DNA of 64,000 nucleotides from Euglena gracilis (GCA_039621445.1 CP154954.1:13324716-13388715); one strand, 5' to 3'; counted from the stretch's first letter, positions 51,201 to 54,200 are shown. Numbers and translations: made by a program. Notes: generated from the letters alone by a model not told the origin.

Positions 51201-54200
51201 AATCAAACAACATAACTCAGCGTCAATGCAACATTGGTCAAGGAGCAATTTGATAATATACAATCAAAATCAAAAAAAAAACCAAAAATGAAACTGCAAC
51301 GTAAAAAAAGCCGGAAATTCTTAAAAAAAAAATGCGCGAAAAAATCGAAAAAAAATGCGCAAAAAAAAATGCGAAAAAATCCGGAAAATACGCAAAAAAA
51401 ATGCGCAAAAATGCGAAAAAAATGCGAAACGCATTTCCCCCCCTGCACATGTTGATCAGGCACAAGCAACGGTTTAGAGTAACCCCCCCCCAAATAATGC
51501 CACCCCAGGGTATTATTTTTTTTCGCCCGAAGTCCCGGCCCGAGGGGGGGGGGGGGTATTATTTGGGTGGAGGGTTTATCAACATCTTGATTACTGCCAA
51601 TGCTGTTATCAATGTATTTCCATCCCTTATTTAATCCATCTGTCAGGTCGTTTATTCATTTGCATGGTCCGGCTGCTGCACAATCACACCTGTCATACAT
51701 CGCTGACAAACGAACTCGTAGTGCACCGGCATCACTGCAAAATCAAAATTGAATCGACAAAATAAAACCTCAAAACAATCTGGATTGTTGATGAGGGGCT
51801 CAGCTGTCCCCAGCAGGCTTTTGCTTAAGGACCCGGGGGGGGGGGGGGGCAAGGCTAGCCAATCGGCTAGACACAGGAAAAAGTGGACTAGCTAGACCCC
51901 CCTCCCCCCCCGGGGGGGGGGGGGGGGGGGGGTCCGGGGGTCCCCCCGACTGGAAAAAAATTTTCCTCCGGCGCTGCGCGCCAGAGGAAAAATGAGGTTT
52001 TTAACAGGTTTTTGGCTGATTTTGTTCCAAGAATTCCCAAAAATGGCCAAAAACGGGCATTTTTGGCCATTTTTGGGGGTCCCCAAAAAAAATTCGGCGC
52101 TTTGCACCGGTCACTGGAAAAAAAATTTCCACTAGCTAGCCCGGGGGGGTCGGGTGGCAGGTCGGGACCCAAAATTTTGAAAAAATTTTTTTCGCTCAAA
52201 AACACTTTTTTTCACTTCAGAACATCAAAAAAGGTGTTTTTTTTGGCGAAAAAAAATTTTCCGACCCGGACCCCCCCCCATGCCCCCCCTGGGTCCACCC
52301 ACTAGCCAAATTTGGACTAGCTGCAGTCCAGCCCCCCCCCCAGGGTTCGATATAAGGACAGGTGGGGGGGGGGGGTGGTCCGGACCCCCCCCTGCGGGCC
52401 AGAAGGGGGGGGGTGGGGGGACACCCCCCCCACCTAAACAGTGGCGCGGTCTGGGAGACCGAATTTCGGCCCGGCGCAAAGCGCCGGGCCAAAATTTTTT
52501 GACCCCCCAAAACGACCAAAAGTGCCATTTTGGGCACTTTTTGGGCAAAAATGTGCCAAAAAATGCAAAAAAAATTCGGCGCAAAGCGCCGGAGGAAAAA
52601 ATTGACCCTTTTTGGGGGGGTCCCGGGTACCCCCCGAGGGTCGGTCCGGACCCCCCTGGCAGGTGGGGGGGGGGGTGGTCCGGACCCCACCCCCCCGCGG
52701 GCCAGGAGGGGGGGGGGCGGGGGGGGACACCCCCCCACCTAAACCATGTACGCCCTCCTCATATCAAACCCTGCCCCCCCGGGGGGGTACTGCAATCCCT
52801 TAAGCAAAAGCCTGGTCCCCAGTGATGTGTCATGGGAAGTTTGCCAGGTCCATTCACATTCACATTCACAAAATTTGAACGAAAGTGCCATTCTGGCACG
52901 ATCTGCCCAAAATTGCGACTGTCTGACAAAAACATCAGCATCTTGAGTTTTCTGTCCCCAACAAACAACGCACACATCAAAGATACACCCAGTTTGCATT
53001 TTGAATGCACAAAAAATTTTAAAATCTTCTACAGAACGGAAACACACACACACACACACACACACACACACACACACACCTGTTGTCTGAGAGCATCACT
53101 AAGGGCAGATCGAGGTCAGTGGGAGGCAAATCAACAGAGGGGACCTGCACCCCCGTCATCAACCCCAGTTTGCCCGACTTTGCTGCGAGTTTGAAAAGGC
53201 AAATATGGCAAACGTTCAACGTTCATATGCACATACAGCAAGGTTTCATCACACAGTAATTCATCCACACGATGAAAATGACCACCAACCAAAACTAGAA
53301 AGGCGACCTTGTCTCCATTCTCAAATATCCACAAAATAGGAGGTCTCCTTCAAATGCCCATTTCTTATGACTCAATCATTCGACGATTAGTGACTGTGCA
53401 AATATTGTCTGAGTCAAATTAACTGAACCCATCTCCCCAACCTGGAAGTAAAAATTCAATACAAATCAACAGGTAGATTGAATTGAAATGGCCCTTTTTC
53501 CTTCTTTGCCATTTGGAAGACTTTAATTGCCAAAGATGAGGATCGTTGGGGTCAGTGCTCAACAGACATACTCAGAAAATGGATTGTGAGGTCGCACAGG
53601 CGGTCTGCCATATGGAACGTGACCGACCAGCCCATAGGTCCCAAGGTTGGAACAGCCTGAAAATGGGGGGGAGGGGCGACGTGTGACAGAAATTTGTTGT
53701 GCAGACAAACAATCAATTGGCACCCACCCACCCACCCATCCTGTGCCCACAAACTCCCACCAACCTCAGAGGACCCACCGACCACGTCTGGAGGTCACTT
53801 TTCAAAGAACCAGTCAGCCACGTTTTGAAACCAGCAACCCGCCCACCCCCCTCCTGGCAGGATGTCAGTTGCTCTGGCAGGGGGGGGGGGGGGGGGACTG
53901 CACACGGGCTGGTCAAAAAACTGCACTGCAAAAAACTGCATAAAACTGCATAAAACTGCAAAAAAACTGCACTTCAACAAAAAATAGCAAGCTGAAATGG
54001 TGTGCATATGCAAAACAACGTAAATTGCGACCACATGAGCACGCCCCAATTCACCTAACTTTTTTTTGCACGGCACTGGAGCTGATGACGATAAAAATGG
54101 AAAGAAAAAAATCAAGGTACACTGTGCATGGTTTTTCCTGCACTGAAATGCAACTCATGTGTTTGGATGCCGGGTCACAATGGTTTTCCTGCAACGAAAC

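Follow-up and report, generated by a model that had tools for sequence, protein, structure and literature searches.

A composite miniature inverted-repeat transposable element in a predicted conventional intron of a Euglena gracilis C2-protein gene, and related elements whose ends resemble the euglenid nonconventional-intron code

In the cited parts of the literature, euglenid nonconventional introns are described as carrying CAG at positions +4 to +6 that pairs with CTG at positions -8 to -6, with border repeats resembling target site duplications (TSDs) and release as circles (PMC11282704). The same review places their removal later than that of conventional introns, proposes an origin in MITEs (miniature inverted-repeat transposable elements), and already labels the CAG/CTG pair as a terminal inverted repeat (TIR) and the border repeats as TSD (PMC11282704). 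The MITE-origin hypothesis was put forward in PMC3935182, whose authors wrote in 2013 that euglenid genomes had yielded no identified transposable element, and the origin of these introns is still called unclear, with a MITE-like source proposed (PMC3935182; PMC12501133). Knock-in of natural and synthetic introns in a 2025 study defined a sufficient code, made of a 3-nt spacer, CAG, about 12 nt of inner pairing, CTG, a 5-nt spacer and a purine opening the downstream exon (PMC12501133). An 8-nt direct repeat at a recently gained intron in one Euglena agilis strain was attributed to break repair (PMC4770533). In this study we analyzed a stretch of 64,000 nucleotides from Euglena gracilis (GCA_039621445.1 CP154954.1:13324716-13388715; one strand, positions counted from its first letter), referred to below as the window. 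An original prediction, made from the sequence, had read a 1001-bp element at 51814..52814 (el1) as a recently gained intron that splits a C2-like exon. According to our results, el1 is a genuine MITE that very probably lies within an ordinary conventional intron of a C2-protein gene, with intronic flanks, and would leave the transcript together with that 1345-nt intron; related elements in the same window have ends that match the nonconventional-intron code.

The ends of el1, a non-autonomous DNA transposon, are perfect. Its left TIR, CAGGCTTTTGCTTAAGG (51814..51830, plus strand), and the perfect inverted copy that forms its right TIR (52798..52814, minus strand) were found by exact motif match and by inverted-pair search, in which they make up one pair (I23) of 17 nt with 17/17 complementary positions (100%). 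The TSD GTCCCCAG, read directly from the sequence at 51806..51813 and 52815..52822, is identical at 8/8 positions between its two copies. The perfect 17-bp TIRs and 8-bp TSD on which the original prediction was built are therefore confirmed. The 17-mer has four exact matches in the window and one match with two mismatches, at 10241 in the whole-window motif scan, as compared to 0.01 expected from 100 shuffles. We also checked 75 loci elsewhere that share the 17-mer (71 from metagenomes and 4 from viral contigs) and found no copies of the el1 family among them: the 71 metagenome loci carry one TIR match each, a BLAST comparison of all 75 loci with el1, its sibling element and the flanks returned a single 30-nt match, and these loci were rejected as chance matches. 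A literature search for the 17-mer in published papers gave no match, and scans of the window for Rfam families and for tRNAs returned 0 matches each.

Out of the four exact TIR matches, two belong to a sibling MITE of 421 bp (el2; 43154..43574, found by motif scan and alignment), which has the same TIRs as el1 (CAGGCTTTTGCTTAAGG at 43154-43170 on the plus strand and at 43558-43574 on the minus strand, both exact) and a TSD of its own, GCCCCCTC (43146-43153 and 43575-43582; 8/8 identical, read from the sequence). In alignment the two elements are 89.5% identical across 333 nt, and two short blocks at the termini match as well. el1 consists of an el2-like backbone with additional internal material, exceeding el2 by 580 bp, and 433 bp of this excess is a second MITE nested in el1 (52341..52773), with ends CAGGGTTCGATATAAGG and CAGGGTTTGATATGAGG (CAGGG​TT...AACCCTG) and a poly-C TSD that matches at 7/8 positions. 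The nested MITE interrupts a poly-C tract of el1, and the corresponding point in el2 is intact; its ends pair in the RNA fold, and it has a relative at 39831-40409 according to the within-window comparison. el1 is composite, a feature that the original prediction had not remarked on.

Like hAT-type MITEs, el1 is short, lacks evident coding capacity and has TIRs with an 8-bp TSD; several copies related to it exist, and one element is nested within another. It differs in that no transposase partner was seen, in an interior that is unusually rich in G/C homopolymers and in its fifth terminal base, which departs from what we take to be the hAT terminal motif, YARNG (el1 agrees with it at 4/5 positions). 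We note that the window contains nine C(5+)G(5+) blocks, located in the subterminal parts of MITEs, and 0 blocks of the reverse order, G(5+)C(5+).

The host gene is encoded on the minus strand at 41069..60932 and contains at least 19 exons, as found by tblastn and junction search. Its product is a C2-domain protein related to two proteins, P0003 (585 aa, with an 'EG_transcript' identifier as source name, a form used in Euglena gracilis papers) and P0002 (542 aa; accession prefix GGOE01, a prefix given to E. longa sequences in bioRxiv 10.1101/573709). Both were retrieved at 83% identity by a word search with an 84-aa open reading frame (ORF) at 42099-42350 (minus), which matches positions 48-90 of the Pfam C2 profile (E 1.7e-4; 22.2 bits, the cut-off being 22); another ORF at 42543-42860 (minus) matches profile positions 1-32 at E 0.026, under the curated cut-off, and the motif scan places a convincing minus-strand C2 start near 42.7 kb. 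The real C2 domain (PF00168) is found in exons 16-18 (42122..42745, minus). Searching the window with P0002 and P0003 by tblastn gave collinear minus-strand matches from 60932 to 41069, and every junction was set by an exhaustive in-frame search with P0003 as reference. This yielded a 19-exon model that contains 0 stops or frameshifts over its 527 codons, and the model protein shares 76.9% identity with P0003 (510 columns) and 69.2% with P0002, the latter two being 66.4% identical to each other. The organism would accordingly be a euglenid near to, yet distinct from, the sources of these two transcriptomes, unless the locus is a paralogue. The donor motif G|GTGTG is found at 9 of the 18 junctions (J5, J6, J7, J9, J11, J12, J15, J17 and J18, numbered by intron).

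In this map el1 falls within intron 5 (J5; 51735..53079, minus, 1345 nt), a conventional GT-AG intron that contains both proposed 'exon' flanks as well. Exon 5 (53080..53182, minus) is matched by tblastn to P0002 (E 6e-9) and P0003 (E 7e-11) and delimited by the junction search, exon 6 (51690..51734, minus) was placed by the same two methods, and between 53189 and 51689 the only tblastn matches are 53189-53079 and 51730-51689, with none between them. The in-frame junction reads AACAG|GTGTGTGT...TTTTGCAG|TGATGCC, with exon 5 ending at 53080 and exon 6 starting at 51734; the donor AACAG|GTGTGT fits the motif of the gene, and the joined exons align in the model against ...LVTLPDERDKEAATVGVLKVRFSVAYNR of P0003. 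Together with its repeats (51806-52822), el1 begins 257 nt from the J5 donor and ends 71 nt from the acceptor, and J5 minus el1 and one TSD is 336 nt long. Exon sequence, which the original prediction required on both sides of el1, is found on neither side, and homology mapping of whether the flanks are exonic puts both of them in the intron 53079..51735, so the intron-gain reading fails.

el2 is placed in the same way. It lies in intron 15 (J15; 42746..43620, minus, 875 nt), a conventional GT-AG intron with borders TGG|GTGTGTAG...CTGTCAG|GCC, and begins 38 nt past the 5' splice site, in agreement with the earlier suggestion that the sibling sits within an existing intron.

We propose that el1 would be a hAT-like non-autonomous cut-and-paste transposon, with an 8-bp target duplication and CAGG...CCTG termini, which inserted into a pre-existing GT-AG intron 5 of originally about 336 nt in this minus-strand euglenid gene. 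The second MITE would have inserted into el1 later, and el1 would be carried out of the transcript within the 1345-nt conventional intron, with the coding sequence unaffected; that the predicted splice sites are the ones used is what we infer from motif and frame. Several points weigh against this proposal. The exon map rests on homology to proteins that are 66-77% identical and on splice motifs. At J5 there is a gap of about 5 residues relative to P0003 (DKEAAT region), so that the ends given for exons 5 and 6 are those that score best and are not proven. A non-GT-AG register one base away (53079/51733) scores 169, versus 163 (derived) for the GT-AG register, the 6-point excess stemming from one residue. 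Lastly, the hAT assignment, which we treat as probable, rests on TSD length and the terminal motif.

Among the other explanations, the one that survives best is that el1 (1009 nt) and el2 (429 nt) are excised separately, as circles, by the nonconventional machinery, either from the pre-mRNA or from their conventional introns once these have been removed, again leaving the message unaffected. We consider this unlikely, and it nevertheless draws on a close match of el1 to the published code. On the sense strand el1 reads ...CTGGG|GAC-CAG-GCTTTTGCTTAAGG ... CCTTAAGCAAAAGC-CTG-CTGGG|GAC..., in which a 3-nt spacer leads to CAG and to 14 nt that pair perfectly, and CTG is followed by a 5-nt spacer, with G as the first retained base, so that every published code element is present. 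The unit of 3+1001+5 nt amounts to 1009 nt, equal to the loss that the original prediction expected, and the 3- and 5-nt spacers of the code sum to the length of the 8-bp duplication. The termini of el1 are paired in both the minimum free energy and centroid folds. el2 matches the code likewise, with G following its 3' border. Counting 3 and 5 nt of the TSD, el1 has in common with euglenid nonconventional introns, as they are characterized in the cited parts of PMC3935182, PMC4770533, PMC11282704 and PMC12501133, CAG at +4 to +6, CTG at -8 to -6, paired arms, border direct repeats, a purine after the 3' cut and the lack of GT-AG borders. Regarding the last feature, the nine minus-strand registers that remove el1 exactly begin with CT, TG, GG, GG, GG, GA, AC, CC and CA and end with TG, GC, CT, TG, GG, GG, GG, GA and AC, respectively; none of the nine has GT-AG or GY...AG borders, and none ends in AG. 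The difference is that el1 and el2 sit in conventional introns and do not interrupt coding sequence. Nonconventional introns are reportedly removed after conventional ones (PMC11282704, in the part cited), and therefore el1 would normally leave first, with the lariat; furthermore, the sample consists of two copies, el1 and el2.

It is also quite improbable that the locus is a silent paralogue or pseudogene from which nothing is spliced. In its favor, the word search with the 84-aa C2 ORF gave no identical protein (best 83%), the 93-aa upstream flank of el1 has no real relative in phmmer, though this intronic query carries no exon, the N-terminal exons of the gene upstream of 60932 were not found, and the C-terminus runs 30 codons beyond the end of its homologues. 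Against this stand the 19 exons and 527 codons free of stops and frameshifts, the 77% identity to P0003, and conventional junctions that keep intact splice motifs.

The view of el1 as an intron newly gained within a coding C2-like exon, and lost from the RNA as a unit of exactly 1009 nt, has become very hard to sustain. Part of what was originally described is present: the peptides quoted beside the TIRs are found on the minus strand, and once el1 and one repeat are removed the frame is uninterrupted, over 144 codons. Its NPDCFE stretch loosely resembles NP.WNE, which we take to be a C2 motif, and this counts in favor of a coding exon. Exact removal of an element plus 8 nt without GT-AG is also mechanistically possible in a euglenid, judging from the cited part of PMC12501133. 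Set against these points, the flanks lie between two conserved exons with space for about 5 missing residues only, and the true C2 domain is 9 kb distant. The frame of the proposed 'exon' differs from those of both exon 5 and exon 6: the exon-5 frame, continued into J5, meets a stop after 20 codons, and the exon-6 frame reads DAGALRV where the original frame reads AVMPVHY. On its upstream side the proposed frame includes a (TG)n tract as well as a (GTGAAT)3 repeat.

Similarity searches with the flanks gave no sign of coding sequence. Pfam searches of each flank returned 0 families at E<=10, C2 (PF00168) included, and phmmer with the 93-aa upstream flank against 1.84 billion representatives returned one match, which lies wholly in query residues 6-34, the CVCVCV microsatellite stretch. 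When longer proteins were searched by words with the downstream flank as query, one candidate came up, and none scored; the joined 144-aa ORF, compared with the model protein, P0002 and P0003, reached a BLASTP E of 1.1 at best, and its phmmer bit scores were below zero. Out of 20,000 positions drawn at random in the window, 45% fall within an ORF of 146 codons or more in some frame, and at 32% the frame is open for 53 codons or more in both directions. TA dinucleotides occur at 0.5 of expectation, and long chance ORFs are therefore the rule in the window, where microsatellites and homopolymers are plentiful as well. We attribute the frame that stays open over the empty site to chance, in DNA that is poor in stops and rich in repeats. 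Two further ideas about the flanks were dropped: that they are old repeats (BLAST within the window shows them to be unique), and that they are joined by GC-AG splicing within the TIRs (CAG|GC...TTAAG|CA), which would add 21 nt in frame and is moot as the flanks are placed in an intron.

A reading of el1 as a dinoflagellate introner was dropped because the host gene proved to be euglenid. Introners of Micromonas, Aureococcus and dinoflagellates do share with el1 a TIR/TSD transposon tied to introns and include 8-nt TSD classes functional in either orientation, according to the cited part of bioRxiv 10.1101/2020.10.14.339549; they supply or recruit GY...AG spliceosomal sites, whereas el1 ends in TG, has no GY...AG register and is a passenger here.

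With el1 most probably a passenger of a conventional intron, the inference in the original prediction that one family serves both as an intron and as an intron passenger does not hold for el1 itself. In a broader sense it stands, through a related intron of the same gene. J13 (43917..44233, minus, 317 nt) is a predicted nonconventional intron that splits a conserved coding exon and consists of a 309-bp MITE (44230..43922) plus 8 nt. The MITE ends are TGGGCTTCTTTT... and ...AAAAGAAGCCTG, and its flanking repeats, GTCTTGTC and GTCCTGTC, match at 7/8 positions. The junction search found no GT-AG solution for J13; its best solutions, which comprise 7 equivalent registers, each take out 317 nt, and this removal yields a protein matching P0003 (...RSSVLALGFFSGCFLLTFVLPGW) and P0002. 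Were J13 retained, there would be a frameshift as well as a stop 42 residues on. Judged by this alignment, J13 must leave as exactly the element plus 8 nt. Its ends pair in the fold (z-score -2.06), and in the register of the code it has the 5' triplet TGG instead of CAG, for which wobble pairing with CTG is possible, with G opening the next exon.

J13 belongs to a repeated family. The interior of its MITE is homologous to 10284-10509 (73% over 241 nt, E 2e-33) and to 34776-35000 (72% over 239 nt, E 1e-30), and two shorter pieces of the window match it as well. The second of these regions is part of a complete, non-intronic copy of 288 bp (34755..35042) with ends CAGGCTTCTTTTT and CAGGTTTCTTTTT and a perfect TSD, GTGCCAAG. 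The copy that starts at 10241 (to 10509) bears an el1-like TIR, CAGGCTTTTGTTTAAGT, which links the J13 family to the group of el1 and el2. J13 thus supports, at the level of sequence comparison, the idea that MITEs may act both as introns and as intron passengers.

Two more introns of the gene show an exact CAG/CTG fit: J8 (48146..47076, minus, 1071 nt; GGC-CAG-CTCC...GG-CTG-GGCCC) and J16 (42641..42367, minus, 275 nt; GTT-CAG-GATGGC...CACT-CTG-CCGGT). A purine opens the next exon after both, and neither has a recognizable TSD or other copies within the window. J2 (about 60285-60452) and J14 (about 43720-43829, about 96-102 nt) are not plain GT-AG either, and perhaps the same is true of J10.

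To see how common the CAG...CTG design is, the window was scanned for elements with CAG...CTG ends, at least 11/14 arm bases paired, and 8-bp flanking repeats with at most one mismatch. The scan found 8 elements, as compared to 0, 0 and 0 with the repeat windows shifted by 8, 16 and 24 nt, respectively. They are located at 5053-6054, 18988-20779, 23271-23961, 34755-35042 and 39831-40409, the remaining three being el2, el1 and the MITE nested in el1, and all 8 have CAGG as their first letters. By-eye inspection, the only kind made, saw no transposase-like ORF in the largest of them (18988-20779).

Other observations concern the host gene as such. Past its last aligned residues (...SWRLDDV), the C-terminus (40973-41196, minus) has 30 more open codons before a stop at 40973-40975, and P0003 ends 4 residues beyond the equivalent point; the read-on may reflect a further small intron or a longer C-terminus. 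Exon 15 (43621-43733, minus) has a counterpart in P0003 and none in P0002, being either a cassette exon or a lineage difference. The conventional intron J11 (44917-45925, minus) is also 1009 nt long, by coincidence, and is bordered by an 8-nt direct repeat, AGGTGTGC, with 9 equivalent registers and no TIRs seen; this repeat overlaps the G|GTGTG donor motif and may therefore be due to chance. About four interstitial telomere-like CCCTAA (TTAGGG-type) repeats are found at 49835-49860, inside intron 6.

As an intron gain, the finding at el1 is not real, el1 being a passenger in an old intron. Whether CAGG...CCTG MITEs with 8-bp TSDs are a living source of euglenid nonconventional introns, the code being a hAT-like TIR plus the 8-bp duplication, is in our judgment evenly balanced. 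If they are, every MITE of this kind that inserts into an exon would be excised exactly, with the message restored; J13 would be a caught example, being a degraded member of a repeated MITE family of which a free copy with a perfect TSD is also present, and el1 and el2 would be copies competent for splicing that by chance lie in conventional introns. Our literature search found no paper naming such a MITE family or the 3+5=8 link, and supplementary intron tables may bear on this novelty. In the window there are intact MITEs that reproduce the splicing code in their ends and in the length of their TSDs, together with one predicted nonconventional intron that falls in a repeated MITE family, and the MITE-origin hypothesis for euglenid nonconventional introns therefore becomes directly testable.

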